This document shows positions 25,221-64,000 of a stretch of 64,000 nucleotides of DNA, piece by piece. The notes under the pieces are model-generated. The model was not told where the DNA came from, ran no database searches, and worked only from the letters and a program-made list of their open reading frames with translations. The stretch's first letter is position 1. Each line of letters opens with the position of its first letter. A program made the position numbers and the translations under genes. Where the stretch lies: positions 5,786 to 69,785 of the forward strand of contig JAJECK010000016.1 of the NCBI GenBank assembly GCA_022822085.1. The letters are read 5' to 3'. Source of the stretch: Candidatus Poribacteria bacterium (lineage in GTDB: Bacteria; Poribacteria; WGA-4E; WGA-3G).

Positions 25221-26114
25221 TCAAGTTGAAAGGGATACTTGTTCTTTAGCATGATAGGAACTACGCACCAGAGGTCCTGATTCAACATGTCGAAAACCCA
25301 TTTCTAAACCTGCCTCTTTCAGTTCATCAAATTCTTCAGGGGTGTAGTATCGTTGTATAGGAAGGTGACGTGCGGAAGGAGAGAGATACTGTCCGATTGT
25401 CAGAATATCGCACCCAGTTTCGCTGATGTCTTGCATGGTTTCCAAAAGTTCAACCACTGTTTCCCCCAAACCTACCATAAGTCCTGATTTTGTCAGTATG
25501 TTAGGTTTCAGTTTCTTACCCATTTTAAGGAGTGTCAGTGTTTGTTGATAATTTGCGTAGGGACGGGCGCGTCGGTAGAGACGTTCCACTGTTTCTGTAT
25601 TGTGATTGAGCACCTCAGGTTCTGCCTTGACAATTACCTCAAGTGCCTGCCAATTCCCCTCTAAATCAGGAATAAGCACTTCAATGGTACAATTTGGTCG
25701 TTGTTGACGTGCCGCATAGATGCAGTCTGCAAAAATGGATGCACCACCATCTGGCAAGTCATCACGATTGACTGATGTAATGACTACATGATTTAACTTC
25801 AAGTGTGCAACCGCTTCGCCAAGTCGTCTCGGTTCATCAGAATCTACACTATCGGGATTTCCTTTTTTCACTGCACAGAACATACATCGACGTGTGCACA
25901 CATCGCCTAAAATCATAAATGTTGCAGTGCGACTGTTCCAGCATTCACCAATGTTTGGACAACGCGCCTCTTCACAGACAGTATGTAGTTGTAAATCTCG
26001 CATGAGTTTTTTTAACTCTGTGTAGTTATTACCACTGGGAATACGTGCCTTGATCCATGATGGGTGTCTGCGTTTAGAAGAATTTGAGGTTACAATTGTG
26101 AGGGGTTTCATCAT
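25221..26114 (-). CDS. lipA: Lipoyl synthase
   Basis: Cys clusters CEEARCPNIGECW and the radical-SAM motif CTRRCMFCAV. The track ORF extends to 26216 but would then read through the tRNA-Sec gene. The Met-Met at 26114/26111 is the likely start. Confidence 0.9.
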   Translation of the reverse strand: MMKPLTIVTSNSSKRRHPSWIKARIPSGNNYTELKKLMRDLQLHTVCEEARCPNIGECWNSRTATFMILGDVCTRRCMFCAVKKGNPDSVDSDEPRRLGEAVAHLKLNHVVITSVNRDDLPDGGASIFADCIYAARQQRPNCTIEVLIPDLEGNWQALEVIVKAEPEVLNHNTETVERLYRRARPYANYQQTLTLLKMGKKLKPNILTKSGLMVGLGETVVELLETMQDISETGCDILTIGQYLSPSARHLPIQRYYTPEEFDELKEAGLEMGFRHVESGPLVRSSYHAKEQVSLST

Positions 26115-26140
26115 TTTGGTTTCCAATCTCACTTGGAAAA

Positions 26141-26234
26141 TGGCGGGAGAGGGTGGGAATCGAACCCACCTATCCACTTGCATGGACAAGCCGGTTTTGA
26201 AGACCGGTAGAGCCACCAGACCCTATCCTCCCCC
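26141..26234 (-). tRNA. selC: tRNA-Sec (anticodon UCA), 94 nt, CCA encoded
   Basis: Folded by hand as GGGGGAGG-AT-AGGGTC-TGGT-GGCTCT-A-CCGGT-CTTCAAA-ACCGG-[21-nt variable arm CTTGTCCATGCAAGTGGATAG]-GTGGG-TTCGATT-CCCAC-CCTCTCCC-G-CCA. The 8-bp acceptor plus 5-bp T stem, 6-bp D stem with 4-nt loop, long variable arm and UCA anticodon are the bacterial tRNA-Sec hallmarks. It lies 35 nt downstream of selB. Confidence 0.9.
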
Positions 26235-40470: not shown

Positions 40471-41577
40471 ATGCAAACAGACACCAAAATACTAACCGAA
40501 GAAGAAATCAGAAGGTTATTTAGAACGGATATTGGACATTTTGAAGATAAAAGTGCGAGATTACTTTTTAAACAGACAGAACACTTACGAGGTTTAGTGA
40601 TGTTCCTTGTAAGTAACATTGCAGAACATCTTGATTTCTCACAGGCAAAGGTAGAAAATCGGAGTTATATTGACAATTCATTACGAGATTTGATGTCGGA
40701 TATCGTGTTTTCTGTCCCGTTCCGAGACGACACTCAAACAGACGATCTGACAATCTACATCCTCATAGAACATCAGTCCACTGTAGATCGAATGATGGGT
40801 TTTCGGTTTCTCTCCTATATGTGTCAAATATGGAGAGATCAGTTACATGCGTTAGATAACGCGAAAGTGCCATTAAACCAGCAACGCTTGCGTCCGATAC
40901 TCCCGATTGTCTTTTATACTGGAGAAAGACCTTGGAAAATCCCGCTAACACTCAATGCAGTGATGGATCTACCTGAGATGATGACACCTTTCGTGCCAAC
41001 ATTTGAGACCCTCTTTTTCGGGGTCAAGGATACCGATATAGACGAGTTCGGACAACACAATCACCCTTTCGGATGGTTGATGGCGGTCACACAAAAGGCT
41101 GAATCGGATGATAAGTCGCTTGAGCAAACATTGGCAGAAGTTCTCAAAAGACTGGACACGTTATCACCCGAAGATGAAGCACTACACACTCACGCTATGG
41201 TCTATCTCTCTCATCTGATAATAGGTAAAAGACCAGATTCCGAGAATGACCATTTGATACAACTCATCATGACACATAATAAAGATACGGAGGTTGAAAG
41301 TATTATTATGACTGGTGCAGAAGCTCTTATACAACAAGGAAAGAAACAAGGTCTTGAACAAGGTCTTGAACAAGGTCTTGAACAAGGTAAAATAGACGAA
41401 AAACAGGCAGCCGTGCTTAGATTGATGCGGCTACGTTTTACGGAAGTTTCAGAAGCGGTTGTCAATGAGATAAATAGAATAGAAGACTTCTCGCTTCTTG
41501 ACACGCTTTTTGAAGAAGTTTTCAATGCTGAAACTATAGAGGACATTGTTCTGCCGAACAAAAATAACGGTGCATAA
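40471..41577 (+). CDS. Rpn-family recombination-promoting nuclease / putative transposase (PD-(D/E)XK, YhgA-like) with a DUF4351-like C-terminus
   Basis: ..LRDLMSDIVFSVPFRDD....TIYILIEHQSTVDRMMGFRFLSYMCQIWRD.. is the core of YhgA-like proteins. The C-terminal AAVLRLMRLRFTEVSEAVVNEINRIEDFSLLDTLFEE resembles DUF4351. A (QGLE)x3 insertion is encoded by a 12-bp tandem repeat at 41347-41388. Confidence 0.7.
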   Translation: MQTDTKILTEEEIRRLFRTDIGHFEDKSARLLFKQTEHLRGLVMFLVSNIAEHLDFSQAKVENRSYIDNSLRDLMSDIVFSVPFRDDTQTDDLTIYILIEHQSTVDRMMGFRFLSYMCQIWRDQLHALDNAKVPLNQQRLRPILPIVFYTGERPWKIPLTLNAVMDLPEMMTPFVPTFETLFFGVKDTDIDEFGQHNHPFGWLMAVTQKAESDDKSLEQTLAEVLKRLDTLSPEDEALHTHAMVYLSHLIIGKRPDSENDHLIQLIMTHNKDTEVESIIMTGAEALIQQGKKQGLEQGLEQGLEQGKIDEKQAAVLRLMRLRFTEVSEAVVNEINRIEDFSLLDTLFEEVFNAETIEDIVLPNKNNGA

Positions 41578-46827: not shown

Positions 46828-46864
46828 ACCCTCTCTCATATTGCTACAGAAAGGACATGCCCCA

Positions 46865-48809
46865 ATGTCAAAAGAAAAATTTGACAAAAAACTGATTGAC
46901 CTACTCGAATCCAACCCCGACTTTGTTGATGAAGCTGGAGAACTCCACCGTGCAAACGTCAGAGACCGTGCATGGAAACTGGACCACGACCTTATCAAAT
47001 TGCTGCTCACTGACAAAGAAATTGAAGCAAAATTCTTTAAAGAAATTGCAGGACGTTGGATTTTTGATAACAATACCTTCGTTGACTATATCACCGACAA
47101 AACCTTCTTTGCCGACTCCTATACCCAATTTCGTAACAAAATCGGTTTAAACATTGATGGAAAATATCTACGTGAACGAGGCGAGGTGGCACTTGTTTGG
47201 CCATACAAGGATTGTGTCTTAGAGGGTGGGCAAACGCGTGAAGAAGAAAAACGCAAAGAGATTTTCTTCAATGAAATCCTTGCACAAGACGAAATCAATC
47301 GGATGTTTGATCCGAAGGTGCTGACCAACTGGAAACGTCACACCGCTGCAGGTGAACAAGAGGTAACAGAAATTGAACGCGATGAGAACGGGACAATTCG
47401 CGAAAACCTCATCATCAAAGGCAACAACCTTATTGCACTCCATACCCTCAAAGAACAATTCCGCGGAAAGGTTAAACTGATTTACATTGACCCGCCGTAT
47501 AATACGGGTGGCGATCAAGAAACTTTTACCTACAACAATAATTTCAATCACTCAACTTGGTTAACTTTCATGAAAACCCGGCTAGAGGTATCAAGAAATC
47601 TACTGACAGATGATGGTTTCATAGCAGTTACTATTGATCATCACGAATTATTTTATTTGGGAACTTTGGCAGATGAGATATTTGGACGGGAAAACCGCAT
47701 AGGAATAGTGACCATCTACATCAATCCAAAAGGTAGGAATCTCGCTAAATTTTTTCTCTCCTGTGACCGAACACATGTTAGTATATACGAAGAATATATC
47801 TAAAGCAGAATTAAACAAGATAGCCTTAGACAAAGACAAAATAGAAAGTTTTGACAAACGCGACGAGGCAGGAAATTATCGCTTAGAACCATTCATGAGG
47901 GTAAGATCAAATACTTCACGAACTAATAAACCTAAATTTTGGTATCCTATTTACGTCAGTAAAGATTTGAAAGACATTACACTGACAAAAAAGAATAATT
48001 ACCATAAAGTTTTCCCCATTGATAACGATCGTGAATTTACATGGAAAACCAAGCCAGAGACATTTGAAAAACGAAATGTCGGTGACTACTTTGTTGCAGT
48101 TGAGCAGCAGGGGCAGATAATAATCTTGCACAAATACCGTGAGCAACAAGTGATAAAAAATTTGTGGATGGATAAGAAATATTTTCCTGAATTTCAAGGG
48201 ACAAACCTCCTAAAAAATTTATTAGGGAAAAATTTATTTAGCTATCCCAAGTCGCTGTATGCCGTGTTAGATACTTTGAAAATAATGACCAGTAATAACG
48301 ATATAATATTAGACTTCTTTGCTGGTTCGGGAACAACTGGGCATGCCGTATTAGAAATGAACAAACAGGATGGCGGTAAACGTCAGTTTATCCTCGTAGA
48401 GCAATTAGACGAACATATATCAGTTTGCAAAGAACGCCTTAAGAAAGTAACCGCACAAGAAGGTCTTCTGAGCGGAAATTTTGTCTCATGTGAACTCATG
48501 TCTTACAACGAAGTTTTTATGGAACGAATCCAATCCGCAGAATCAAGTGAAGAACTTTTAGATATCTGGCGCGATATGTCAAAAGATTCCGTACTGAATT
48601 GGTATGTTAAACCTCACAAACCGATGGAAGCAGAAGAACATTTTATCACTATCAATGACGTTGAGAAACAGAAGCAACTGTTAGCGGCGCTGCTGGATAA
48701 GAACCAATTGTATGTTCACCTCTCTGAAATAGAAGACGAAACGTTTAAGGTTAGTGAAGCAGATAAACTACTAAACAAAAATTTTTATAAAGGAGGCGAT
48801 GATGTCTGA
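46865..48809 (+). pseudogene. mod: Type III restriction-modification methyltransferase (Mod), split by a frameshift at a T6 tract (47750-47755)
   Basis: The first frame carries the catalytic motif LIYIDPPYNTGG and stops at 47803. The +1 frame continues ..FSPVTEHMLVYTKN... and carries the AdoMet motif ILDFFAGSGTTGHA. Deleting one T of the T6 tract gives NPKGRNLAKFFSPVTEHMLVYTKN in one continuous frame. Confidence 0.8.
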
Positions 48810-51408
48810 ACAATTTCTATATGAACAACTGGATACACTGTCCCAGTTTGGCGTTTTAGATAAGGAAATGCCAGATAGCATTACGCAAAATTTGAAACCT
48901 ACATACCAACTTCGTCCCTATCAAGTGGAGGCGTTTGCAAGGTTTATTCACTACTTAAACACAGATTTTCCCGGCAAAAGAAATCCCTTACATCTACTGT
49001 TTAATATGGCGACAGGCAGCGGTAAGACGCTTATTATGGCAGGATTGATACTCTATCTCTACGAACACGGATACCGTAACTTCCTCTTTTTCGTCAATGC
49101 AGACAATATCATTGAGAAAACAAAAGACAATTTCCTCAACCCAGGATCCTCAAAATACCTTTTCAATAGTCCTATCTATTTTAAAAATGACCAGGTTAAG
49201 GTGGCGGAAGTGGAAAATTTTGAAGGTGTCAACGAGAACAATATCAATATCCGATTCACTACAATTCAGAAGTTACACAGTGATTTGACGACAGAAAAAG
49301 AGAACGCCTTAACTTTTGACGATTTTAAGAAAAAGAAAATTGTTCTCTTGTCTGATGAAGCACACCACATGAACGTCTCTACGAGGGCACAGTTGCAATT
49401 GGAGTTAATGGGAGAAAATTCGGCTCAAAACGAAAAACCGACATGGGAAAACACTGTTGAAAACATATTTAACGCAAACAGCGATAATCTGTTGCTGGAA
49501 TTTACCGCAACTTTTGATGATAAAACGCCTGCAATCGTGGATAAGTATAGGAATAAGATCATCTACCGTTATGATTTAGTCCAATTTCGGAACGACAAAT
49601 ATTCAAAAGACATAGAGATAGTGAGGTCCAGTTTCAGTCTGGAAGATCGCATGTTGCAGGCAGTCATTCTCCATTATTACAAGCAATCTGTCGCAGCAGA
49701 GTACAAGATCCAACTGAAACCCGTAATTCTGTTTAAGGGAAAAACAATCCCGGATTCCGAGCAGAACAAAGCAGACTTTCATAAACTTATTGATAGTCTC
49801 ACTGGAAACGATATTGACAAGATTCGAAGGTCTGAAGTTCCGATTATTAAGAAAGCGTTCCACTTTTTTGACAATCATAAAAAAATCAGTTCCGAACAGT
49901 TGGCACACGAGCTAAAAACGGTATTTGAGGAGAAATACTGTCTTGCTGTTAACTCTAAAGTCGAAAGAGAAAAGTATCAAGTAGAGGTAAATAGACTTGA
50001 AGAAAAAGAAAATCCTATCCGTGCTATTTTCGCTGTGCAAATGCTCAGTGAGGGATGGGATGTGTTAAACCTGTTTGATATTGTGCGTTGTTACGATACC
50101 GGCAGTACGGGGCATAACAAAATTGGAAAAACCACAATCGCTGAAGCACAACTGATTGGACGCGGAGCCCGTTATTATCCTTTTAGTCTGCCACCGGAAC
50201 ATGAAGATAAGTATACGCGCAAATTTGATGAAGACATGGAACATGAACTTCGCGTACTGGAAGAATTTCATTATCACAGCATTAACGATCTGCCCTACAT
50301 CTCTGAGATCAAAAAAGCACTGATTCAGGAAGGTCTAATAGACGAACAGGTTGTGACTCGCAAATTGAAGTTAAAAAAAGAATTCAAGGAAACCGATTTA
50401 TACAAATACGGTGTTATATGGGTAAATAAACAGACACCAAGAGACTATCAACACGTTAAATCTTTTGCAGACTTGGCGGATCTAAGCGTCAAAAAGAAAT
50501 CGCATGAGCATATTATCTATGAAGGGACTGGAGGCGTAACGGGCATGACAGAGAGTGACCAAACCTATACCACACGAAACAAAAACGGCAAGGACATACC
50601 GATAACAGATATTGAGCAGAATATTCTCCAAACCGCTATCGCACGTAATCCGTTTTTCAAGTTTGCATCACTCAAACAGTATTTTCCGCATTTAAAATCT
50701 ATGGAGGAATTTAGGATTTCAGAAAACTTTTTGGGTGGCTTGTCAATCAGATTTAAGGGGGATCGTTCTCAATTAGAGGACAATCCTGCCGAAAAACTAA
50801 GGGCATGTTGTGATCTATTAGAAAAAATTAAAGCTGAACTTCGAGAAAAAATTACCGAACAGGAAGGCACAAAACACTTTTTCAAGGAACAAATCCGAGA
50901 TGTTTTCAAGAACAAAATCCTGAAATTCAATGCTAAAAGCACTCGTGCGGATGAAAATCACAACGCAGAACGTATAGCGAAAGCTGAGAAATGGTATGCT
51001 TTTAACGGTCTTTATGGCACCAGTGAAGAAAAAGCATTCGTGGACTTTCTACAATCACACCTTGAGCAACTGCAGAAAAACTATGATGACGTTTATCTCA
51101 TCCGAAACGAGAGACATTTTTACATCTATAACTTTTTTGATGGGCGAGCTTTCCAACCCGACTTTGTTCTCATTTTGGGTAAAGAAAACGGTGAAACACT
51201 GAGTTACCAACTTTTTATTGAACCTAAAGGTGAACATATCGAAGATTTTGACAGTTGGAAAAATGATTTTCTGAAAGAGATTGATACCGAACGTAAAGGT
51301 GAACTTATAATAGAGGATAAGAACTACCGAATTATCGGATTACCGTTTTATCAGGAGAAAAAGCAAAATGAATTTCGTGATTCTCTTGATGCAATACTAC
51401 AATTATGA
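48799..51408 (+). CDS. res: Type III restriction enzyme, Res subunit (SF2 helicase-nuclease)
   Basis: Walker A MATGSGKT and DEAH box LLSDEAHHM. Helicase motif VI-like QLIGRGAR. The C-terminal region carries a putative nuclease core (FQPDFVLIL...IEPKG). The start overlaps the mod stop. Confidence 0.85.
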   Translation: MMSEQFLYEQLDTLSQFGVLDKEMPDSITQNLKPTYQLRPYQVEAFARFIHYLNTDFPGKRNPLHLLFNMATGSGKTLIMAGLILYLYEHGYRNFLFFVNADNIIEKTKDNFLNPGSSKYLFNSPIYFKNDQVKVAEVENFEGVNENNINIRFTTIQKLHSDLTTEKENALTFDDFKKKKIVLLSDEAHHMNVSTRAQLQLELMGENSAQNEKPTWENTVENIFNANSDNLLLEFTATFDDKTPAIVDKYRNKIIYRYDLVQFRNDKYSKDIEIVRSSFSLEDRMLQAVILHYYKQSVAAEYKIQLKPVILFKGKTIPDSEQNKADFHKLIDSLTGNDIDKIRRSEVPIIKKAFHFFDNHKKISSEQLAHELKTVFEEKYCLAVNSKVEREKYQVEVNRLEEKENPIRAIFAVQMLSEGWDVLNLFDIVRCYDTGSTGHNKIGKTTIAEAQLIGRGARYYPFSLPPEHEDKYTRKFDEDMEHELRVLEEFHYHSINDLPYISEIKKALIQEGLIDEQVVTRKLKLKKEFKETDLYKYGVIWVNKQTPRDYQHVKSFADLADLSVKKKSHEHIIYEGTGGVTGMTESDQTYTTRNKNGKDIPITDIEQNILQTAIARNPFFKFASLKQYFPHLKSMEEFRISENFLGGLSIRFKGDRSQLEDNPAEKLRACCDLLEKIKAELREKITEQEGTKHFFKEQIRDVFKNKILKFNAKSTRADENHNAERIAKAEKWYAFNGLYGTSEEKAFVDFLQSHLEQLQKNYDDVYLIRNERHFYIYNFFDGRAFQPDFVLILGKENGETLSYQLFIEPKGEHIEDFDSWKNDFLKEIDTERKGELIIEDKNYRIIGLPFYQEKKQNEFRDSLDAILQL

Positions 51409-52957: not shown

Positions 52958-53884
52958 ATGGATGCGCGGCAAGTATTCTACATCATTATGTACTGGGTAA
53001 AACGTGTAAAACCAATCAAAATCCTTCGTTTATACCGATATGCGCGGCTCGGTATCTATGATGATATGTTGTTACACGATGTAGGTTGGCAACTTTATGC
53101 GCGTTGTAGTGATATAGTTAAGGTTAACAATGTATACCGTGAAGGGTTGGTCCCTTGTCCACAATGTAATACTAAAATTGCAAGAAAGATTGATCCACTA
53201 TTTAGTCAAGGTGAAGGGGGAACACGAGAAAACTGGTTTCACTGTGTTCACTGTAGTAAAAGGTTACTTTGGCGTGATTGTCGTCAAGCTTTAAGAAACA
53301 CACCGAGGTGTTTTACCTGTTTTTCTATACTCAATATATCAGAGGATTTAGCATGCGGCTGCGGCAAAACGTGGACACAAAAGTCCTACAATCAATCTGT
53401 AAGAACTCGCGTCCGATTACCATGTCCACACTGTCTGCACCTTGTCCGCAGACCAGAACCCTTACCAGTAACAAAATCAGTTCAACGCCGACAATCTAAA
53501 TCCGATTTACAGTGTCCCAAGTGTAAAGAAACAGCGGAGCATATCTCCGGAAAAATACAATGCACAGTCTGTGGTTACCAACGTAGATGGCGAGATTACC
53601 GGAAAAGTCTTAAAAAGAAGGATGAAAAGCTTACTTGCACAGACTGCGGCTATTCGTTCAAGTGGCAAGCATGGCGGAAAAGCACTCGGACATTAAGAAC
53701 AGGAAATCCAAAACCCGCGCGTGAATTTGTAGAACAGTGGACCAGATGCTATACACCACAACAACGCATGATACAAATTGATTCACTGCTTCAAACATTA
53801 CACGGTAGAGGTCCTTTAGCTCCTCTATTTATAGATAGCGGGGAGGATTGTATACGTAGGATGCTTGATGACTTGGCTAAATAG
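52958..53884 (+). CDS. Cysteine-rich protein with at least 6 CxxC...CxxC zinc-ribbon-like units; function unknown
   Basis: The units are CPQCNTKI...HCVHCSKRL, CFTCFS..CGCGKTW, CPHCLHLV, CPKCKET...CTVCGYQ and CTDCGYSF. Linkers are basic. The exact start is uncertain. Confidence 0.5.
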   Translation: MDARQVFYIIMYWVKRVKPIKILRLYRYARLGIYDDMLLHDVGWQLYARCSDIVKVNNVYREGLVPCPQCNTKIARKIDPLFSQGEGGTRENWFHCVHCSKRLLWRDCRQALRNTPRCFTCFSILNISEDLACGCGKTWTQKSYNQSVRTRVRLPCPHCLHLVRRPEPLPVTKSVQRRQSKSDLQCPKCKETAEHISGKIQCTVCGYQRRWRDYRKSLKKKDEKLTCTDCGYSFKWQAWRKSTRTLRTGNPKPAREFVEQWTRCYTPQQRMIQIDSLLQTLHGRGPLAPLFIDSGEDCIRRMLDDLAK

Positions 53885-54092
53885 ATTTGTCTATTTTGAG
53901 TATTTGTAACGTTTTTCTATAAACATTGCGTCCCTACGGGACTGAAGAACTGGACTAAAAATCAAAATCCTTAAGTTGACACCCGCTGAATGCCAAAAAG
54001 GCATTCATAGCGTTGATTTATGGGTTTCGTGCCTCTACCCGACCCACAATATTAGAATGGACTATCCACTACTCGTCAAGGGAGTGTATAAT

Positions 54093-56042
54093 ATGATAAA
54101 ACTACATCAATACATAATAACCGTATTCTTGCTTTGTGCGTTGTTTCTGTTGAACACCTCTGCCCAAGATGTTAAAGATGTTACTCCGGTCGGTTTGCCA
54201 GAAGGTGCAATCGGAAGACTTGGAAAAGGTTCAATTCAGGATATCGCGATTTCTCCAAATGGTAAACAGTTAGCGGTTGCAAGTATGATCGGGATTTGGC
54301 TCTATGATACGCACACTGGTAATGAAATTGCGCTTTTAACTGGACATAGAACTGCCGTACATTCTGTTGCATACTCACCAGATGGGAGAACAATTGCAAG
54401 TGGTGGAGGATTAGGAGATGACAAATCAATACGACTTTGGGATACACTGACTGGTGAACACACAGTCCTTTCAGGAAATAGTGGTGATGTTCGGACATTA
54501 GCGTTTTCTCCAGACGGCAACACACTCGTTAGTGGAGATGACGACGGTAATGTTAAACTGTGGGATGTAAGCACGGGTGAATCCATACAAATACTATCAG
54601 GATTTGGAGAACAAGTTCTATCAGTTGTGTTTTCTCCAGATGGAAACACTGTGGCGAGTGCTGCGTTAGACAGTACAATCCTGTCATGGAATGTTGAAGA
54701 TGGACAAATTAAGCATAAATATTTCGGTCATACCGATTGGGTGCGTATTCTTGCGTTTTCGCCTGATGGAACTACACTCGCAAGTGGAAGTCGTGACGGC
54801 ACTATTCGCTTGTGGGATACTGCGACTGGTCAACAGAAAAGGATTCTTACTGACAAAGAAAATAGATATGATTCTATCGCGTTTAGTCCTGATGGGAACA
54901 CCCTCGCATTCAGTGTCTACCGTAAAAGCAAGATCGAGTTCTTGAATGTATCTACAGGAAAAATTGAGCAAACAATTCACATTCCTGATGGTGGAGTTTC
55001 TAAAATCCTGTATTCTCCAGATAAGAAAACGCTTGTGGGTATGGACTGGGGTGGAAAAATATATTTTTGGAACCTTGAAAACGGTGAAAACATTTTGACC
55101 ATAAATGGTCATACACGAAATGTCCGCGCACTCGCGTACTCTATAGATGGAAAAACATTAGCAAGTACATCTGGATTAGGAATTGCTTTGTGGGATGTGG
55201 AAGCGAGACAACTTACTCAGACTCTTCATGGACATCAACAAAGTGGAATAGCATCTATAGCTTCTTTAGCATTTTCTCCTGATAATCGCACAGTCGCCGG
55301 TGCTGATTGGAATGGTAACATTTATTTATGGGATTATACTACTCCTATACATATAAAAACTCTGCAGGGACATACAGAGGGAATCCGTTCAATAACGTTC
55401 TCCTCAGACGGTAGTAAGTTAGCGAGTACGGGAAATGACCACACAATTCGTATTTGGAATGCTGAAAACGGTGAAGAAATGCATAAAATGATTGAAGACA
55501 AGGGACGGGCATTTTCAGTTGCCTTTTCTCCTGATAATCTGACGTTAGCAAGTGGTGGATTTAACGGAATGATACGTTTCTGGAATGTTGAAACAGGAGA
55601 GCAGAAATTGACACTTCCAAATACCGGAAATGGATGGTCTATTGCCTACTCACCAAATGGGGTCCTACTTGCAACTTCGGGAATGCAAATTAAGTTGTGG
55701 CATACAACCAGCGGAGAATGTATCCAAACACTTGATCTACCTATCAATATGGATGATATGGCAAATTTAGATAGGCGGCAGAGATTCCATCTTGATATGA
55801 TGGGTAGTATGGTAGAGAGCCTGGCGTATTCATCGGATGGAAAGACCATCGCTGGCGTAGGGAGAAACGGTATGATCCATTTGTGGAATATAGAGACTGG
55901 GAAGAAACAGCATACCTTTTCAGGACATAAGTGGACTGTCAATACATTAGCGTTCAGTCCTGATGGTAAAACGCTTGCAAGTGGAAGTAGTGACGGGACA
56001 ATTCTTTTGTGGGATGTACAAAATTCTGAAACGGGGAATTAG
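54093..56042 (+). CDS. Secreted WD40-repeat protein, ~14 blades (array member 1, subtype A)
   Basis: Signal peptide MIKLHQYIITVFLLCALFLLNTSAQ. The conserved post-signal module is GLPEGAIGRLGKGSI.DIAISPNGKQLA. Repeating ..FSPDG.TLASGS.D.TI.LWD..TG units follow. Start taken at the Met at 54093, preceded by AGGGAG. Confidence 0.85.
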   Translation: MIKLHQYIITVFLLCALFLLNTSAQDVKDVTPVGLPEGAIGRLGKGSIQDIAISPNGKQLAVASMIGIWLYDTHTGNEIALLTGHRTAVHSVAYSPDGRTIASGGGLGDDKSIRLWDTLTGEHTVLSGNSGDVRTLAFSPDGNTLVSGDDDGNVKLWDVSTGESIQILSGFGEQVLSVVFSPDGNTVASAALDSTILSWNVEDGQIKHKYFGHTDWVRILAFSPDGTTLASGSRDGTIRLWDTATGQQKRILTDKENRYDSIAFSPDGNTLAFSVYRKSKIEFLNVSTGKIEQTIHIPDGGVSKILYSPDKKTLVGMDWGGKIYFWNLENGENILTINGHTRNVRALAYSIDGKTLASTSGLGIALWDVEARQLTQTLHGHQQSGIASIASLAFSPDNRTVAGADWNGNIYLWDYTTPIHIKTLQGHTEGIRSITFSSDGSKLASTGNDHTIRIWNAENGEEMHKMIEDKGRAFSVAFSPDNLTLASGGFNGMIRFWNVETGEQKLTLPNTGNGWSIAYSPNGVLLATSGMQIKLWHTTSGECIQTLDLPINMDDMANLDRRQRFHLDMMGSMVESLAYSSDGKTIAGVGRNGMIHLWNIETGKKQHTFSGHKWTVNTLAFSPDGKTLASGSSDGTILLWDVQNSETGN

Positions 56043-56099
56043 GTCAAATCATCTGATTTTCTCCAGATTTGAGAACTATAATAGAAGGAGATGAACATC

Positions 56100-58166
56100 A
56101 TGAAATCCTGCCATCAATTCATCCTCACACTGTTTTTTCTTTTTGTATTTGTCGCACTTAATGTCCCCGCACAAGAAGCCACAAAGACGAATTTACCAGA
56201 AGGCGCCAAACTCCGAATTGGTAAAGGCACACTGGGTGAAATCGCCTACTTTCCTGATGGCACTCGGTTTGCAGTGGCAACTTCAATAGGAACTTGGGTC
56301 TACGACTCAATTATAGGTGAAAAGTTATACCAACTCTATGATCCTAAAAGCCGAGTAAATGGAATAAAGAACGTATCTATTTCACCAAATGGTGAAACAA
56401 TCGTGACTAAAACTTCAGAGGAAAATGTGTTGTTATGGAATGCTAACACTGGAGAACTCTTGAGACAACTTGTAAGCGATGAAAAAGAACACTATTACGC
56501 GTTGTTTTCACCAGATGGGGAAATAGTTGCAACATCAAGTGGAACACCATCTGAAAGATCGAACAAGACAATAAATTTGTGGGATGTCAGGACAGGTAAA
56601 CTCTTAAATACACTTGCAGAACCTAATAGTGCCTTCTATAACAAATGTTTTTCACCAAATGGAAAGAGTATAGCTACATGGAATTTAGGTTCAATTTACG
56701 TGAGTCTTTGGGATGTCGTTACAGGACAACTCCTAAAATCCTTCACCGCACATGACGGTAATGTTAACACCGTACAATTTTCACCAGATAGTCAGACCAT
56801 CGCTACAGGTGGACAGGACTATACGGTACGTCTATGGAATGCTAACACAGGACAACTCCTAAATACTCTCGATCATCGGGATATCACTTCATTAACAAGT
56901 GTTCTATTTTCACCAGATGGAAAAATAATTGCTACAGGAGGCATATCAAGTGGAACGGTACACCTATGGGAAGTGACAACTGGAAATAGACTTTTTCGTC
57001 TTATTGGACATACGGATAACAGTGTGTATAGCATCTGCTTTTCACCAAATGGGAGAATAATTGCTACTGGTGGTGACGAAGGGACGATACGTCTATGGTC
57101 TACTAACACAGGATTAGAACTTATGAAACTCTCTGGACATAAGGGGATGATTGACACCGTTCTCTTTTCACCGGACGGATTAACTCTCCTGAGTAAAAGT
57201 TCAGACAGGACAGTCCGCCTATGGGATACACTTTTAGGACAAAGCCTCAAAACGCTTGATGGATATACTGAGAGCGTGACCTCAGTATCCTTTTCACCAG
57301 ATGGGAATACAATGGCAAGTGGAAGTTCGGACAAAAAAGTCCGTTTGTGGAATGCAAGGACAGGCAAACTTGTGAATACTCTTACTGGACACACCGATGA
57401 AATCTTTAGTGTCCGTTTCTCACCTGATGGAAAAACAATGGCAAGCGGGAGTAGGGACAATACTATACGTTTATGGGATGCTATTACAGGAGAACACATT
57501 AGAACTATTGAAGGACATGAAAGGTCTGTCAAAAGTATCCTATTTACGACAGATGGACAAACAGTTATTAGTCATGGTTGGAATGAAGTACATCAATGGG
57601 ATGCTAATACTGGTAGTCACTTGAAAACACTCAATGGACACATGATTTCTCCTGATGAAGATCTTATAATTGATGTGTATAATGAAGAAGTTGATGATCC
57701 CGGTGGGAGGGGCGAATATATCTTGTCCCTATCTGATGTTGACTCTGGGCAACTACGGTGGGAGATAACTGGTTGGGGTAGTGTATTATCAATTGAATGT
57801 TTTTCCCCAGATGGTAACATGTTCGTTACATCTGATGCTCATAACTCAACTTTAGAATTATGGGATGTTGACACCGGACGAATTATAAATACCTATTCTG
57901 GTCATTTGAATTTTCAACATTGTGGTGGAGGCTTAATTCAAGCAGTCCGCTTTTCAAATGATGGAAAGACTATCGCCTCTGGAAGTGATGACAAAACTGT
58001 TCGCCTCTGGTCAACCGAAGAAGGCAAGCACATCAAAACACTCTCAGGACATGCTGCGGGAGTTAATTCAGTCGCATTCAGTCCTGATAGTAAAACGCTT
58101 GCAAGTGGAAGTAGTGATGGCACAATACTATTATGGGATACCACAAATTCTGAAATAGGTGATTAG
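56100..58166 (+). CDS. Secreted WD40-repeat protein, ~14 blades (array member 2, subtype B)
   Basis: Signal peptide MKSCHQFILTLFFLFVFVALNVPAQ, then NLPEGAKLRIGKGTLGEIAYFPDGTRFA. WD40 units are of the form FSP[DN]G..IATG..D.T[IV]RLW[DN].TG. AGGAG lies 10 nt upstream. Confidence 0.85.
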   Translation: MKSCHQFILTLFFLFVFVALNVPAQEATKTNLPEGAKLRIGKGTLGEIAYFPDGTRFAVATSIGTWVYDSIIGEKLYQLYDPKSRVNGIKNVSISPNGETIVTKTSEENVLLWNANTGELLRQLVSDEKEHYYALFSPDGEIVATSSGTPSERSNKTINLWDVRTGKLLNTLAEPNSAFYNKCFSPNGKSIATWNLGSIYVSLWDVVTGQLLKSFTAHDGNVNTVQFSPDSQTIATGGQDYTVRLWNANTGQLLNTLDHRDITSLTSVLFSPDGKIIATGGISSGTVHLWEVTTGNRLFRLIGHTDNSVYSICFSPNGRIIATGGDEGTIRLWSTNTGLELMKLSGHKGMIDTVLFSPDGLTLLSKSSDRTVRLWDTLLGQSLKTLDGYTESVTSVSFSPDGNTMASGSSDKKVRLWNARTGKLVNTLTGHTDEIFSVRFSPDGKTMASGSRDNTIRLWDAITGEHIRTIEGHERSVKSILFTTDGQTVISHGWNEVHQWDANTGSHLKTLNGHMISPDEDLIIDVYNEEVDDPGGRGEYILSLSDVDSGQLRWEITGWGSVLSIECFSPDGNMFVTSDAHNSTLELWDVDTGRIINTYSGHLNFQHCGGGLIQAVRFSNDGKTIASGSDDKTVRLWSTEEGKHIKTLSGHAAGVNSVAFSPDSKTLASGSSDGTILLWDTTNSEIGD

Positions 58167-58221
58167 GTCAAATCATCTGATTTTTTCAGATTTGAGAACT
58201 ATAATAGAAGGAGATGGACAA

Positions 58222-60333
58222 ATGAAAACAAGACAACTGTTCATTCTTACCATATTCTATCTTTTTGTATTTGTCGCACTTAATGTCTCCGCACAAGAAG
58301 CCACAAAGACAAATTTACCAGAAGGTGCGAAACTCCGAATTGGTAAAGGCACATTAGGGGAAATCGCCTACTTTCCTGATGGCACTCGGTTTGCAGTGGC
58401 AACTTCAATAGGAATTTGGGTGTACGATTCAATCACAGGTAAAGAGCTCTACCAACTGAGCGACCATACAAATGGAGTAGACATAATCCGATTCTCTTCT
58501 GACGGTAATACCATTGCTACTGAGAGTCCAGATGGAAGTCTATATTTGTGGAATACGAATACGGGTAGCCACATACGGACGCTCTCTGATGTCGATTTTG
58601 GTCTTTATGATCCAGTCTTCTCCCCTAATGGAAAGATTATCGCGGTACAATACGCAGAAAAATTTACATATTTTCAAAAAACCCTTAGATTATATGATGT
58701 AAAAACAGGAAAACACATAAACACAAGATCCAAACCAATCAACCGTTTCTATAACGTCCGCTTTTCACCTGATAGCAAGAAACTTGCTACATGGGGTTAT
58801 AATAGACAAATCAAGTTATGGGATACATCAACAGGACAGCTTCTTAAAACGATTATCGATCCTGGCGATATTTTTCAGGATAATAGAATCATTGATTTCC
58901 AATTTTCACCGGATGGTAATACGATTGTTGTCTTAAGTAGAGTTAGATACAGTAGGTCTTTGAAGGGAAGTAGTTGGGTCGGGAATGTTGGAATTGTATA
59001 CTTTAGAGATGTTGACATAGAGGAATGGAAACAACTTGAAAAAACCAGATATTCATTAGATGATGAAGGTTTTTCCAGTATATCCTTTTCACACGATGGG
59101 GCAATTCTTGTGACCATACATAAATCGGATGGTAATGTAGACCTATGGGATGCTAACACAGGTGATTACGTAAACAGTCTTATTGGAAATGACATTAGTA
59201 AAATAAGTACCGTAAGTTTTTCTGATAATGGCAGAATTATCGCTACCGGAGGACAGGATGGAACGATACATCTATGGGCAGCTAAACAAGGGATGCATCT
59301 GATACCGCTTTCTGGACATAAAAGTCAAATAAACAACATTATTATCTCTCCAGATGGAATGACTATACTCAGTAAAAGCACTGATAACACAGTTCATCTA
59401 TGGAATGCTATTACAGGACAACTCCTAAACACACTTGATGGATTTACGGAAGATGTTGCAACCGTTTCATTTTCACCAGATGGGAATACAATTGCAAGTG
59501 GAAGTTCGGACAAAAAAGTCCGTTTGTGGAATGTAGCTACGGGGCAACTTCTCAATACGCTAACAGGTCACACTTCTTATATCCACAGTGTCTGCTATTC
59601 GGCAGATGGAAAAACAATTGCCAGCGGAGGGGCAGACACAACAGTACGTTTATGGGATGCTATTACAGGCGAACACATTAGAACTCTTACAGGACATAAA
59701 AGGTCGGTCAAAAGTGTTTTCTTTACCGCAGACGGACAGATAGTTGGTAGTTCAGATTCGGACAGTATTTTGCGTCTATGGGATGCTAAAACCGGAGATC
59801 ACTTGAAAACACTCAATGGAGAAATGATTTCTCCTGATGGAAAACTGATTATACAAATTGAACATGGACAGGTTGAAGGGGACGATAGCTTCTTATACCT
59901 ATCTGATGTTGATACAGGAAAACTAAGGAAACAAGTAACATATTCAGGTAGTTTCGGATTTGAGTGTTTTTCACCCGATGGAAAGTTGTTCGTTATGACT
60001 GATTCAAACAATTCTATCATAGAATTATGGGATGCCGGAACTGTACAAATTGTAAAGACCTATTCTGGACATGTGAGTCTGCCATTCGGTGGAGGCGGTA
60101 CGATTACAACAGTACGCTTTTCAAAAGATGTGAGTACTATTGCATCCGGAAGTCTTGACAAAACAGTGAGACTTTGGTCAATCAATAAGGGAGAACCCCT
60201 GAAGACACTTTCTGGACATACCGATGGAATTAGTTCTCTTGCGTTCAGTCCTGATGGCACAACGCTCGCAAGTGGAAGTAGTGATGGAACTATTCTACTA
60301 TGGGATACCACAAATTTTGAAACGGGTAATTAG
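58222..60333 (+). CDS. Secreted WD40-repeat protein (array member 3, subtype B)
   Basis: MKTRQLFILTIFYLFVFVALNVSAQEATKTNLPEGAKLRIGKGTLGEIAYFPDGTRFAVATSIG... The N-terminus is nearly identical to member 2. An internal block is nearly identical to member 4. Confidence 0.85.
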   Translation: MKTRQLFILTIFYLFVFVALNVSAQEATKTNLPEGAKLRIGKGTLGEIAYFPDGTRFAVATSIGIWVYDSITGKELYQLSDHTNGVDIIRFSSDGNTIATESPDGSLYLWNTNTGSHIRTLSDVDFGLYDPVFSPNGKIIAVQYAEKFTYFQKTLRLYDVKTGKHINTRSKPINRFYNVRFSPDSKKLATWGYNRQIKLWDTSTGQLLKTIIDPGDIFQDNRIIDFQFSPDGNTIVVLSRVRYSRSLKGSSWVGNVGIVYFRDVDIEEWKQLEKTRYSLDDEGFSSISFSHDGAILVTIHKSDGNVDLWDANTGDYVNSLIGNDISKISTVSFSDNGRIIATGGQDGTIHLWAAKQGMHLIPLSGHKSQINNIIISPDGMTILSKSTDNTVHLWNAITGQLLNTLDGFTEDVATVSFSPDGNTIASGSSDKKVRLWNVATGQLLNTLTGHTSYIHSVCYSADGKTIASGGADTTVRLWDAITGEHIRTLTGHKRSVKSVFFTADGQIVGSSDSDSILRLWDAKTGDHLKTLNGEMISPDGKLIIQIEHGQVEGDDSFLYLSDVDTGKLRKQVTYSGSFGFECFSPDGKLFVMTDSNNSIIELWDAGTVQIVKTYSGHVSLPFGGGGTITTVRFSKDVSTIASGSLDKTVRLWSINKGEPLKTLSGHTDGISSLAFSPDGTTLASGSSDGTILLWDTTNFETGN

Positions 60334-60390
60334 GTCAAGATCATCTGATATTTTCCAGATTTGAAACAATAATAAAAGGAGATGGACAAA

Positions 60391-62604
60391 ATGAAAACAA
60401 GACAACTGTTCATTCTTACCATAATCTGTCTTTTTGTATTTGTCGCACTTAATGTCCCCGCACAAGAAGCCACAAAGACGAATTTATCTGAAGGTGCAAA
60501 ACTCCGAATTGGTAAAGGCGTACTGGGTGAAATCGCCTACTTTCCTGATAGCACGCGGTTTGCTGTCGCAACTTCAATCGGAACTTGGGTGTACGATTCA
60601 ATCACAGGTAAAGAACTATACCAACTCACCGACCATACAAATGGGGTAGACATAATCCGATTCTCTCCTGACGGAAATATAATAGCAACTGAGAGTCCAG
60701 ATAAAGGTATACACATGTGGAATACGAATACTCGTAATCACATACGGACACTATCTGATAATAAATTGAGACTCTATGATCCAGTCTTTTCACCAAATGG
60801 AAAGATTATTACGGTAAAATATGTAGAGAACTTTACAAATTTTCGGTTTTATGATGTAAAAACAGGAAAACACATAAATACAATATCCCAACCTGCCATC
60901 CATTTCTATAAACGACGTTTTTCACCAGATAGCAAAACACTTGCAACGTGGCAATATAATCATATAAAGTTGTGGGATGTTACAACAGCTAAGCAACTTA
61001 AAACCATCAACAACCCAGCCGAATCTCAACATGATGGTAAAATAGAAGATGTTCAATTTTCTCCAAACGGTAGAACCCTTTCTGTCTTATGTAGTAGGTA
61101 TCCAAGTGTTGGAACTGTGTATTTTAGGAATATCAACTCTGAAGAATGGAATCAACTAAAAAGGTCCAGACAAAATACAAATGATAAGGGTTATTCCAGT
61201 ATGTTCTTTTCACCTGATGGGAATACTCTCGCAACTATACATAAATCTGATATTAGGGTTGATTTATGGGATGCAAACACGGGAAAATACATCAGTAGAC
61301 TTTTCGGAATTCACAGTAGTAAGATATCTACATTATGTTTTTCTGATAATGGCAGAATTATCGCTACAGGTGGACAGGATGGAACGATACATCTATGGGC
61401 AGCTAAACAAGGGATGCATCTGATACCGCTTTCTGGACATAAAAGTCAAATAAACAATATCGTTATTTCTCCAGATGGAATGACCATACTCAGTAAAAGC
61501 ACGGACAACACAGTCCATCTATGGAATGCGATTACAGGACAACTCCTAAATACTCTTGATGGATATATCGATAGCATATATGATCTTACCATTACCCCAG
61601 AGGGAGATACAATATTAAGTTGGAGTTCTGACGAAACATTACGTTTGTATGATACCAATACTGGAAAGTTACATAAACAACATAAACTCAATGAACACCA
61701 TAAACTCAATGGAATTGAAGGAGACGTTCGCACCCTTTACTTTTCTCCTAACGGTAATACTTTCATAACCCAAAGCACGCAGATGAATGTGTATTTATGG
61801 GATATTGATACAGGAGAACTCATCAATAGATTGTTAGAACGTAGAAATTATATTAAGCAAGTACACATTTCACCTAATGGAAAAACAATTGCTGGTAGAG
61901 GTAATGATGGGACTATCTTGATATGGGATGCTAACACTGGTCAACTTCTCAATACTATTACTGATATCAAAGGTGAACTCTTTCAAGTTAACTATTCCAC
62001 TGATGGTTCAATTATAGTAAGTAGCAGCTCGGAAAATACTACGCAACTATGGAATCCGAACACGGGTCAACTTATTAGAACAATCACTGGAATTAAGGGT
62101 ACCATTGTTGGAGCATATTTTTCAAAGAATGCAAATACAATTGTCACAAGAATATATGAGGAAAGTGATTACGATGGGGCATTTATGTGGGATGGATTCA
62201 CTGGACAACATATAAGAGATCTAAGTTACTCAGGTGCTATAAGCCTTGTTAACTCTTCACCCGATGGAAAGATTGTGACAATTGCGGATGGACACAGTAG
62301 TGATGTTATTCTATTTGATATTTTCAATAGACAGCAATTAAAGACTTTTGCTGGACATGTAGGTCTTGAATCATGTGGCGGTGGGGCTATTAGTGATGTG
62401 CGTTTTTCCCATAATAGAACGAAAATGGCTACTGCCAGTAGCATAGATGCCACAACTATAATATGGAATCCAAAAACAGGTGAACGTCTCAAAACACTCA
62501 CTGGACATACCAATGTGATAAATTCAATTGCATTCACTCCTGATGGTAAAACACTTGCAACTGGCAGTAGTGATGGAACTATTTTGTTATGGGAAGTTCC
62601 ATAA
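60391..62604 (+). CDS. Secreted WD40-repeat protein (array member 4, subtype B)
   Basis: MKTRQLFILTIICLFVFVALNVPAQEATKTNLSEGAKLRIGKGVLGEIAYFPDSTRFA..., followed by WD40 units throughout. Confidence 0.85.
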   Translation: MKTRQLFILTIICLFVFVALNVPAQEATKTNLSEGAKLRIGKGVLGEIAYFPDSTRFAVATSIGTWVYDSITGKELYQLTDHTNGVDIIRFSPDGNIIATESPDKGIHMWNTNTRNHIRTLSDNKLRLYDPVFSPNGKIITVKYVENFTNFRFYDVKTGKHINTISQPAIHFYKRRFSPDSKTLATWQYNHIKLWDVTTAKQLKTINNPAESQHDGKIEDVQFSPNGRTLSVLCSRYPSVGTVYFRNINSEEWNQLKRSRQNTNDKGYSSMFFSPDGNTLATIHKSDIRVDLWDANTGKYISRLFGIHSSKISTLCFSDNGRIIATGGQDGTIHLWAAKQGMHLIPLSGHKSQINNIVISPDGMTILSKSTDNTVHLWNAITGQLLNTLDGYIDSIYDLTITPEGDTILSWSSDETLRLYDTNTGKLHKQHKLNEHHKLNGIEGDVRTLYFSPNGNTFITQSTQMNVYLWDIDTGELINRLLERRNYIKQVHISPNGKTIAGRGNDGTILIWDANTGQLLNTITDIKGELFQVNYSTDGSIIVSSSSENTTQLWNPNTGQLIRTITGIKGTIVGAYFSKNANTIVTRIYEESDYDGAFMWDGFTGQHIRDLSYSGAISLVNSSPDGKIVTIADGHSSDVILFDIFNRQQLKTFAGHVGLESCGGGAISDVRFSHNRTKMATASSIDATTIIWNPKTGERLKTLTGHTNVINSIAFTPDGKTLATGSSDGTILLWEVP

Positions 62605-62755
62605 TGGAGGGTTGAATTTACTGATGGCACATCTTGAAGAATCACAAGTGCGTGTTGAGAAGGCATTGGATGCAAGTTTCCAAGTTAAGAAACGTTAGAT
62701 ATAACTACGGATCGGAATAGTAAAACCTAATTATATACCCAAAAGGAGCACCGTC

Positions 62756-64000
62756 ATGATAAAATCACATTTATACCAACAGCTGAACTTATTAGTTATC
62801 ATTTCAATGTTGTTATGTGTTCACGGAGCATTCTGTGTGTACGGAGATCCACCAAACATTACCCAGTTAGGTCTACCAGAAGGGGCAATTGCACGACTCG
62901 GTATAGGTGGGATTGAAAATATAGCAATTTCTCCGAATGGTAAACACTTAGCAATGGCAAGCCAAATCGGGGTTTGGTTGTATGATGCACAAACGGGTGA
63001 TCCAATTTCACTCTATACTGAACATGAAACTTCCGTCCGTTCAGTTGCATTCTCCCCGGATGGGTTCACTCTCGCAAGTGGTGGTGGATTAGGGGAAGAC
63101 AGATCAATACGACTTTGGGATATAAGGACTGGTGAGCACAGTGTGCTTTCTTCAAGTGACTACAATGATGTAGGGGCATTGTCGTTTTCGTCAGATGGAA
63201 ATTTACTTGTAAGTGGACATCATAGTGGAAATGTTATCTTGTGGGATGTAACCACTGCTAAACTCAAGCATAAACTTTTAGGAAATAATAATCAAGTTTT
63301 GGAAGTAGTGTTTTCACCTGATGGCAAAACTGTCGCGATAGGCAGTTTAGATGCTACGCTTCGACTCTGGGATGTAGAAACGGGACAACTTAAACACGCC
63401 TGTCCTGGTCATACTGATTGGGTTAGGACAGTTACGTTCTCACCTGATAGTTCCGTCATTGCAAGTGGAGGTGGCGATGGCACTATTCGGTTGTGGGATG
63501 TTGACACCGGACAACACAAAAACACATTTAAAGGACAATCAAAATTGGTTAGCACTGTGAAGTTTAGTCATGATGGTAACTATCTTGCGTGTGGCTATGG
63601 CTATCATAAAGATTTACAGTTCTGGAATGTAACAACAGGAAAGGTTGATCAAGTAATTCGCGTTCCTGATGATGGAATTACAGAAGTCTTGTATTCCCCA
63701 GATAAGAAAACGCTTATTGGTATGCATTGGGATGGCAACATTCATTTTTGGGACCTTGATACAGGTACAATTAAATTTAGCATCAAAAATTATACACGTA
63801 ATGCGTATGCGCTTGCATACACTACAGATGGTAAAACATTAGCAAGCACTGCTGGTAATGGGATTGCGTTGTGGGATATAGAAACCAGAACGCAAAAGTT
63901 GACGCTTATGAAACAGCAAGAAGGGGCAACATCTATAGCTGCATTAGCATTTTCACCTGATAATCGCACAATCGCAAGTGCGGATTGGAACGGAATCGTC
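62756..64000 (+). CDS. Secreted WD40-repeat protein (array member 5, subtype A), 5' 415 codons; continues past the window end
   Basis: Absent from the track because no stop falls in the window. AGGAG lies 7 nt before the ATG at 62756. My translation is MIKSHLYQQLNLLVIISMLLCVHGAFCVYGDPPNITQLGLPEGAIARLGIGGIENIAISPNGKHLAMASQIGVWLYDAQTG...SIRLWDIRTGEH... It is collinear with member 1. Confidence 0.85.
   Translation, partial: MIKSHLYQQLNLLVIISMLLCVHGAFCVYGDPPNITQLGLPEGAIARLGIGGIENIAISPNGKHLAMASQIGVWLYDAQTGDPISLYTEHETSVRSVAFSPDGFTLASGGGLGEDRSIRLWDIRTGEHSVLSSSDYNDVGALSFSSDGNLLVSGHHSGNVILWDVTTAKLKHKLLGNNNQVLEVVFSPDGKTVAIGSLDATLRLWDVETGQLKHACPGHTDWVRTVTFSPDSSVIASGGGDGTIRLWDVDTGQHKNTFKGQSKLVSTVKFSHDGNYLACGYGYHKDLQFWNVTTGKVDQVIRVPDDGITEVLYSPDKKTLIGMHWDGNIHFWDLDTGTIKFSIKNYTRNAYALAYTTDGKTLASTAGNGIALWDIETRTQKLTLMKQQEGATSIAALAFSPDNRTIASADWNGIV

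Follow-up and report, generated by a model that had tools for sequence, protein, structure and literature searches.

A tandem array of WD40 genes with predicted export signals in Candidatus Poribacteria that probably evolves by homologous recombination between its members

We analyzed a 64,000-nucleotide stretch of DNA from a Candidatus Poribacteria bacterium (contig JAJECK010000016.1; hereafter the window), the 3' end of which carries five neighbouring same-strand genes for WD40 repeat proteins with predicted signal peptides. The genes were labelled as A-type (g1 and g5) or B-type (g2, g3 and g4) paralogues, which gives the order A-B-B-B-A:

54093..56042, + strand: g1, A-type gene for a predicted exported WD40 double propeller, 649 aa, identified as an open reading frame (ORF) with Pfam WD40 matches
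56091..58166, + strand: g2, B-type, 691 aa; translation probably begins at the second ATG (56100), 9-10 nt past AAGGAG
58222..60333, + strand: g3, B-type hybrid, 703 aa, g4-like in its N-terminal half and g2-like in its C-terminal half
60382..62604, + strand: g4, B-type, 740 aa; likely start at 60391; an extra ~50 aa lies past the tract that it shares with g3
62756..64000, running past the window end, + strand: g5, A-type, 415 aa visible

An initial annotation of this DNA had proposed such a tandem array of signal-peptide WD40 genes with about 14 blades each, and Pfam, a scan of the N-termini, AlphaFold2 and Foldseek all agreed with it. The two subtypes also held: protein identity was 57% between g1 and g5 and 46-61% among g2, g3 and g4, but 30-37% between A-type and B-type members. 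No further member was found elsewhere in the window with a family hidden Markov model, and the GC content of the array (0.38-0.42) was the same as that of the rest of the window. All array ORFs were intact. The longest exact repeats were 28 nt for g1/g2, 55 nt for g2/g3, 58 nt for g2/g4 (located at 56138 and 60429) and, for g3/g4, 86 nt; the 55-nt perfect run, GAAATCGCC...AATAGGAA, had been noticed before and was located at 56238 and 58360. The closest loci in other genomes were all from Candidatus Poribacteria metagenome-assembled genomes (MAGs). For comparison we used L003, an independent circular 6.23-Mb ENA contig, which was collinear with the window over 54069-62633, with g1-g4 in the same order and 98.0% identity (174 differences in 8566 nt).

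All five proteins matched PF00400 well above the Pfam cut-off (184-340 bits vs 27, E 1e-56 to 1e-105), PF25174 and PF25173 also scored above cut-off, and the same scan detected no NTPase (NACHT/NB-ARC) domain in any of the five. Signal peptides were called by a heuristic scan of the n-region, the h-region and the cleavage site, with hydropathy according to Kyte-Doolittle. All five N-termini possessed a basic n-region with one to three K/R residues and a 12-residue hydrophobic core (Kyte-Doolittle 2.75-3.3); the cleavage motifs in g1-g4 were TSA/QD (that of g1) and VPA/QE or VSA/QE (the slash marks the site), and the site in g5 was ambiguous. In the AlphaFold2 models of g1 and g3, a helix at residues 2-21 was followed by a disordered linker (predicted local distance difference test, pLDDT, < 50) and then by the first strand. 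Sec export of the array proteins therefore appears likely from their N-termini. None of the five N-termini fitted the lipobox [LVI][ASTVI][GAS]C, and a distant relative, P0115, carries a lipobox-like LLSGC. The NCBIfam model TIGR04183 (the C-terminal sorting domain of the Por/type IX secretion system) had no match at E<=0.01 in g1-g4, the C-terminus of g5 being outside the window, and in the alignment the proteins stop 5-10 residues beyond the last blade. They are not TolB, as the best score against the equivalog TIGR02800 was 87 bits (g1), compared with the 343 required. The conserved N-terminal motif of the initial annotation was found in g1-g3, whereas g4 (LSEGA, PDS) and g5 (GIG, not GKG) departed from it.

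The models of g3 (pLDDT 83.5, predicted template-modelling score 0.77) and g1 (pLDDT 85.5, predicted template-modelling score 0.83) were both all-beta, with 57-59 strands that amount to about 14 four-stranded blades. With Foldseek, more than 630 columns of both models were aligned to tandem-propeller proteins with template-modelling scores of 0.6-0.7, and the matches included PDB 2YMU as well as double propellers of the small-subunit processome and of cilia. Because of these full-length matches, two seven-blade propellers per protein are likely; the 7+7 split, and the position of the switch in g3 (below) relative to the domain boundary, are based on strand counts and fold matches. A 50-aa insertion gives g4 about one extra blade.

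Each junction from g1 to g4 is one copy of a repeated module of ~400 nt, with 83-90% nucleotide identity as compared among the junctions of the collinear L003 copy of the array. The module consists, in this order, of the last blade (~110 nt), the stop codon, a spacer of 48-55 nt, and ~250 nt for the signal peptide and the first blade, and the spacer ends in AAGGAG, ~10 nt ahead of ATGAAA. The modules are located as follows:

55938..56335, + strand: g1/g2 junction module, with a 48-nt spacer with AAGGAG and repeat families D4, D6 and D14; 84-90% nucleotide identity to the other junctions in L003; includes the g1 tail patch 56003-56037
58062..58457, + strand: g2/g3 junction module; contains the tail patch of g2 (58118-58161) and, at 58360, the 55-nt run
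60229..60627, + strand: g3/g4 junction module; includes the window-specific g4 leader patch 60451-60486

A conserved module of this kind is a likely substrate for recombination. No terminator-like site was found on the + strand in any array spacer; given also the short spacers and the genes' own ribosome-binding sites, g1-g4 are plausibly co-transcribed as one transcript. A promoter scan revealed no excess of sites over shuffled sequence, and Rfam and tRNA scans found nothing inside the array.

The 174 differences between the window and L003 were clustered, and at least five of the clusters copy paralogue sequence. One of them lies within g1:

54800..54873, + strand: g1 conversion patch; the source is an A0-like paralogue that is absent from the window; 7 residues changed

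Here A0 is an extra A-type gene of 655 aa in L003. Compared with L003 g1, the patch contains 19 differences in 74 nt, whereas 1.5 were expected (Poisson P=5e-15), and the patch region is identical to L003 A0 at 102 of 104 positions (L003 4540-4643), with 16-18 consecutive A0-type informative sites and bounding orthologue-type sites at 54819 and 54896. At the protein level the change is GQQKRILTDKENRYDS versus GKQKKILTDQEDIYGT. Outside the patch, window g1 is g1-type overall (472 of 513 informative sites); as this includes the 5' end, loss of A0 from the window through an A0 x g1 crossover was rejected.

Other clusters lie at gene ends. First, the 3' tails of g1 and g2 have been exchanged between the window and L003: window g2 58118-58161 is 97.6% identical to the tail of L003 g1, with 12 consecutive paralogue-type informative sites, and window g1 56003-56037 is nearest to the tail of L003 g2, not to that of L003 g1. 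Second, the leader of L003 g3 is identical to g2 at 102 of 102 positions, whereas window g3 differs at 7 sites. Finally, the window g4 leader at 60451-60486 is identical to g2 (36/36), whereas L003 g4 differs at 5 sites. The paralogue-type patches thus postdate the split of the window from its 98%-identical relative, which upholds the earlier suggestion of gene conversion. Since these difference clusters copy paralogues, conversion is ongoing on the timescale of strains, mostly at gene junctions but also inside a blade region.

The largest mosaic feature, which the initial annotation had missed, is the half-gene hybrid g3. In a codon alignment, columns ~60-400 of g3 showed 60-98% nucleotide identity to g4 versus ~40-68% to g2, whereas from column ~405 to the end identity was 58-86% to g2 versus ~41-77% to g4, and the two figures came together only in the homogenised 3' tail. 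NTLDG/FTEDV, near residue 407, marks the switch, and the extra blade of g4 is absent from g3. Judged from these identities, g3 is g4-like in the N-terminal half and g2-like in the C-terminal half. Within the g4-like part, one tract appears to have been exchanged between the two genes:

59221..59443, + strand: g3 copy of the exchanged g3/g4 tract; it spans about two blades, which strand counts place at approximately the 7th and 8th
61342..61564, + strand: g4 copy of the g3/g4 tract, recognized by identity, silent divergence (dS) and a run test

These copies differ at 13 of 223 nt and share the 86-nt perfect run, exactly the numbers given in the initial annotation. Estimates of dS and omega were made with NG86. 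Between g3 and g4, dS was 0.00 in the signal peptide, 0.42 in the first-blade module, 0.66 in segment N2 and 0.93 in N3; it fell to 0.26 in the 68-codon tract, between flanks of 0.93 and 0.91, and reached 0.9-1.7 in the C-terminal half. Identities at four-fold sites agreed with this pattern. In a Sawyer-type permutation, the g3/g4 run comprised 32 consecutive concordant polymorphic sites (P<1e-4), and with third codon positions of the g4-like half only, a 17-site run was still found (P=0.0009). The heterogeneous silent divergence and the run tests reject uniform divergence with local constraint, and the claim that the identity is mosaic could be confirmed. However, the exchange of the tract seems not to be very recent, because its dS of 0.26 is similar to that of g4 orthologues between species (0.25-0.37).

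Single-gene loci revealed a more complex history of g3. In L036/L037, which come from two separate samples, and in L038, the locus has a g3-type gene as its sole WD40 gene. In the L036 gene, N3 and the tract are near g4 (dS 0.23-0.26) and the C-terminal half is g3-type. The L038 gene is close to g3 in the C-terminal half (dS 0.03-0.26) but not in N3 (1.37) or the tract (1.18); in the tract, this g3 orthologue has a different, g2-like sequence. The structures of the L036 and L038 genes suggest that the family's history is reticulate and that blocks ranging from several blades to half a gene were swapped. A single unequal crossover was also considered as the full origin of g3 and was rejected, because g3 has its own orthologues and its halves differ in age relative to g4 and g2.

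Orthologues were found for each array member: for g1, the 649-aa gene of L003 (96% protein identity); for g2, genes of L002 (688 aa, 89%) and L001 (689 aa, 73%); for g3, P0012 (L003, 98%), P0019 (78%), P0022 (77%), and P0011 and P0026 (both 72%); for g4, genes of L002 (741 aa, 86%) and L001 (737 aa, 74%); and for g5, L008 10508-12484 (~658 aa, 90%). Which gene is which has been kept across species, dS between paralogues was 0.8-1.3, and omega between orthologues was 0.19-0.39. By these measures the array members are old paralogues, each with its own orthologues under purifying selection. Thus, recent partial duplication, which had been offered as a source of the tracts, does not fit the age of g2, g3 and g4, for each of which orthologues are present in other Poribacteria. 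The earlier statement that the array diversifies most blades is likewise not supported, given the low omega and the conserved paralogue identity, and for the same reasons a hypervariable surface repertoire is unproven. The dS and omega estimates gave no sign of genome-wide hypervariability, and no mosaicism was detected between g1 and g5, for which dS was fairly even across the 415 visible codons.

Whole genes have also been gained or lost between close relatives, another feature that the initial annotation had missed. The locus contains one WD40 gene in L036 and L038, two in L002 and L001, five in L003 (A0 and g1-g4) and at least five in the window (g1-g5); the flanks of L002, L036 and L038 are 89-94% identical to the window and L003, those of L001 lying outside the comparison. 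A0 is absent from the window, and g5 is absent from L003. The g4-g5 spacer is homologous to the L008 spacer between a B gene and the g5 orthologue, which is then followed by two GNAT acetyltransferase genes. Because of this spacer homology and the GNAT genes, g5 is probably ancestral here and the last array member. The array therefore probably ends at g5, contrary to the expectation that it continues beyond the window. Looking up the exact g2 and g4 proteins gave no record, and a scan for g5 in JGI metagenomes yielded only distant relatives (27-34%).

Two further observations concern this end of the locus. At 62624-62700, the g4-g5 spacer contains a ~77-nt remnant of the 3' end of a DUF5117/DUF4953 metalloprotease gene, and such a gene lies upstream of the WD40 genes in L004-L006 and L008; the remnant looks like the trace of an old rearrangement. 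The GNAT-like genes (~300 aa) that follow the WD40 array are conserved neighbours and themselves constitute a tandem array of paralogues, whose size varies from 1 to ~4 copies (L003 14322-20418, L036 12072-14938, L008 12399-14335).

We consider it quite probable that the locus contains a tandem family of Sec-exported WD40 proteins (~14 blades, old paralogues) that evolves by homologous recombination between its members. In this model, recombination through the ~400-nt junction modules would reshape the locus with three outcomes. First, short-patch gene conversion would transfer ~35-100 nt, as between the 98%-identical genomes. Second, larger segments would be exchanged, as in the 223-nt g3/g4 tract and the half-gene fusion of g3. 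Third, unequal crossing-over would add or remove whole genes, giving 1 to at least 5 copies between flanks that are 89-94% identical. The proteins are probably periplasmic or extracellular protein-binding scaffolds, and the two propellers of each might serve as exchangeable binding modules, possibly for interaction with the host or the environment. The most economical reading would be one of exported scaffolds with conserved, paralogue-specific surfaces, whose halves and loops are occasionally re-assorted by recombination.

Several points weigh against this explanation. The window does not contain the A0-like gene that would have donated the g1 patch. Instead of being the product of g4-to-g3 conversion, the tract common to g3 and g4 could have been retained from an ancestor beside a replaced N3, and the older exchanges are ambiguous in both direction and timing. 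The single gene of L036, which is g4-like and g3-type, is not obtainable by a simple deletion between g3 and g4. In addition, whole-gene omega below 0.4 argues against rapid diversification. The signal-peptide evidence is heuristic, so that export is likely but predicted, and the protein-binding role is putative.

A further possibility, which we regard as rather unlikely, is a combinatorial receptor repertoire, in which the N- and C-terminal propellers would act as independent ligand-binding modules that are re-assorted, fine-tuned, and amplified or deleted via the junctions. Half-gene swaps would provide the re-assortment, and patches that alter loops, for example the one that changes 7 residues of g1, the fine-tuning, in both Poribacteria and Latescibacterota. 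If true, each strain would have its own exported binders for host or prey molecules, an extracellular bacterial counterpart of the WD40 shuffling of fungal NOD-like receptors (NLRs). The description of the array as a variable surface repertoire is at present speculative.

Recombination between array members must also be weighed against four explanations of a different kind. An artefact of repeat assembly, whether collapsed or chimeric paralogues or mixed strains, deserves attention because repeated junctions and metagenome-derived sequence are classic sources of chimeras. Nevertheless, it is very unlikely, because an independent circular assembly, L003, reproduces g1-g4 in the same order at 98% identity. 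Furthermore, the exact repeats of 28-86 nt are below usual final k-mer or read lengths, each swapped patch of ~100 nt would need two mis-joins, the ORFs are all intact, and the same orthogroups and hybrid architectures were found in L001, L002, L036/L037 (two samples) and L038.

We give equally little credence to programmed antigenic variation, in which one expressed gene would be diversified from silent donors, as in pilE/pilS or vlsE. In its favour, the bodies between the conserved junctions are variable, short patches have been converted between strains and copy number differs. However, all five genes have a start codon and a signal peptide and were counted as full length; as g2, g3 and g4 also each have their own AAGGAG, no silent cassettes are apparent. 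Each paralogue has conserved orthologues (omega 0.19-0.39), and a superficial search found no recombinase, invertible promoter or guanine-quadruplex (G4)-type element adjoining the array.

It is hardly credible that there was no recombination and that paralogues diverging uniformly have kept near-identical tracts only where their blades are most constrained. The tract, the leader and the tail are indeed also the regions whose protein sequence is most conserved across orthologues, and a whole-gene omega below 0.4 fits constraint. On the other hand, constraint would not explain why g3-g4 dS is 0.00-0.26 in the signal peptide and the tract but 0.9-1.7 in N3 and the C-terminal half, why the run test is significant at third positions, why the L038 g3 orthologue has the other type of tract despite its similar C-terminal half, or why differences between 98%-identical genomes copy paralogue sequence. 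Least probable of all is a young tandem duplication with the identity tracts as remnants of recent copies: the same-strand tandem arrangement with homologous spacers would suit it, but paralogue dS is 0.8-1.3, g2-g5 are each nearer to genes of other species (72-90%) than to one another (46-61%), and the g2+g4 pair is present in L001 and L002 too.

Directly upstream of the array lies one further gene:

52958..53884, + strand: Cys-rich ORF of 308 aa with many CxxC pairs

This ORF has ~93% nucleotide identity and the same position in L002, L003 and L038, and it had no Pfam or NCBIfam match above cut-off. Just upstream of g1, at 54022-54071, a short GC-rich palindrome, GGGTTTCG...CTACCCGAC, occurs only once in the window, with relatives in intergenic regions of L003 (3300-3600 and 15426-15583). 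PhyH genes are ubiquitous in Poribacteria, so their adjacency to the array says little. Further away, a type III restriction-modification block occupies 46841-51408 (+), with res at 48799-51408. A frameshift is suggested by its mod gene, which is present as two overlapping ORFs (46841-47803 and 47763-48809). In L002 we detected no equivalent of this block, and ~1.4 kb of res (window 49473-50867) is absent from L003. A YhgA-like transposase gene (PF04754) lies at 40471-41577 (+), ~12 kb upstream of the array. Finally, a tRNA-Sec gene with anticodon TCA is located at 26141-26234 (-; Rfam 78 bits), overlapping the annotated 5' end of ORF 25221-26216, and its presence suggests that the genome probably uses selenocysteine.

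With regard to distribution, which was counted over the loci fetched for comparison, genes of the same type (signal peptide, W/N-LPEGA-x-x-R-[IL]-GKG strand and WD40 repeats) occur in tandem sets of 2-6 at many Poribacteria loci. The largest array, with six consecutive family genes, was found outside Poribacteria, in Latescibacterota (L011 2279-15978, contig CBDCOX010000002.1). Thus, exported WD40 proteins, which the initial annotation called uncommon in bacteria, are not rare in this lineage. In two poribacterial loci (L023 5765-14937 and L024 9035-11827), an N-terminus like that of extracytoplasmic function (ECF) sigma factors is fused to WD40 propellers in proteins of 929-980 aa, and L023 contains three such fusion genes in tandem.

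Poribacteria are dominant uncultured sponge symbionts, and it is assumed that their many eukaryote-like repeat proteins bring about host contact. So far, poribacterial repeat families are known mostly as domain counts, and the present locus shows concretely how one of them changes: the picture includes a junction recombination module, dated conversion patches, half-gene hybrids, and 1 to at least 5 copies in relatives. The genes g1-g5 also constitute a short list of stable orthogroups that could be expressed and used as baits. Should the propellers bind molecules of the host, host specificity might be reached through arrays that differ between strains; if the proteins are periplasmic housekeeping scaffolds, the locus would simply illustrate, in a clean form, how a tandem family in bacteria undergoes concerted evolution.

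The array resembles several known systems in part. The Neisseria opa, Anaplasma msp2 and Borrelia vls genes form surface-protein families with gene conversion. Unlike those families, the array is not divided into an expression site and silent cassettes, nothing points to hypervariability, the fold is different and a host ligand is not known; what they have in common is that paralogous exported proteins receive sequence from one another in patches. Fungal NLRs such as het-d/het-e and HNWD are cytoplasmic NACHT-WD40 receptors with exchange of near-identical internal repeats and diversifying selection. Their WD40 domains are described as evolving by recombination and concerted evolution among paralogues (PMC12222747). 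In contrast, the array proteins have no NTPase, the units of exchange are whole genes, halves of genes and short patches, and omega stays under 0.4. No near-identical internal repeats of the NLR WD40 kind were found within the array genes, whose blade repeats have 60-77% nucleotide identity, and cyanobacterial NACHT-WD40 proteins are relatives at only 33-40% identity.

The WD40 proteins already described from Poribacteria belong to the same phylum and the same domain class as the array. According to the retrieved passages of these studies, WD40 (PF00400) reaches a high abundance in the genomes of Poribacteria (Kamke et al., 2014; PMC3909097), and poribacterial repeat proteins often possess signal peptides or transmembrane helices (PMC3909097; PMC8163846); the later survey, in the passages retrieved, reported that WD40 was neither enriched in sponge MAGs nor laterally transferred (Robbins et al., 2021; PMC8163846). 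In the same passages, the proteins are treated as domain counts, and tandem arrays, half-gene hybrids and gene conversion do not appear; many of the proteins are said there to carry a Por-type C-terminal sorting domain (PMC3909097), which was not found in g1-g4. Searches of the literature on concerted evolution of prokaryotic WD40 proteins and on secreted signal-peptide WD40 proteins of symbionts likewise brought up no account of such arrays or such recombination, although this absence is no proof.

The best Foldseek match of both models, PDB 2YMU, is a bacterial tandem propeller entitled a 'highly repetitive propeller structure', and it aligned over the full length with E of 6e-47 and 2e-55 and 33-36% identity. 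Like the array proteins, it is all-WD40 with ~14 blades. Its repeats are highly repetitive by title, whereas the blades of the array are 60-77% alike at the nucleotide level, and the array proteins additionally have a signal peptide and the conserved LPEGA...GKG N-terminal strand.

Finally, Lepore and anti-Lepore globin hybrids arise by unequal crossing-over in tandem families. Unlike these, the g3 hybrid is old (orthologues of 72-98%) and has since been partly overwritten, and the single-gene loci L036 and L038 carry g3-type hybrids, so that one event would be insufficient. On the other hand, the order g2 - (g4-like 5' :: g2-like 3') - g4 is the expected duplication product of an unequal crossover between g4 and g2, and copy number varies between close relatives of the array, as in the Lepore case. 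The locus clearly exemplifies an evolutionary process that is already known, in a protein class that is known as well, from a little-studied phylum.

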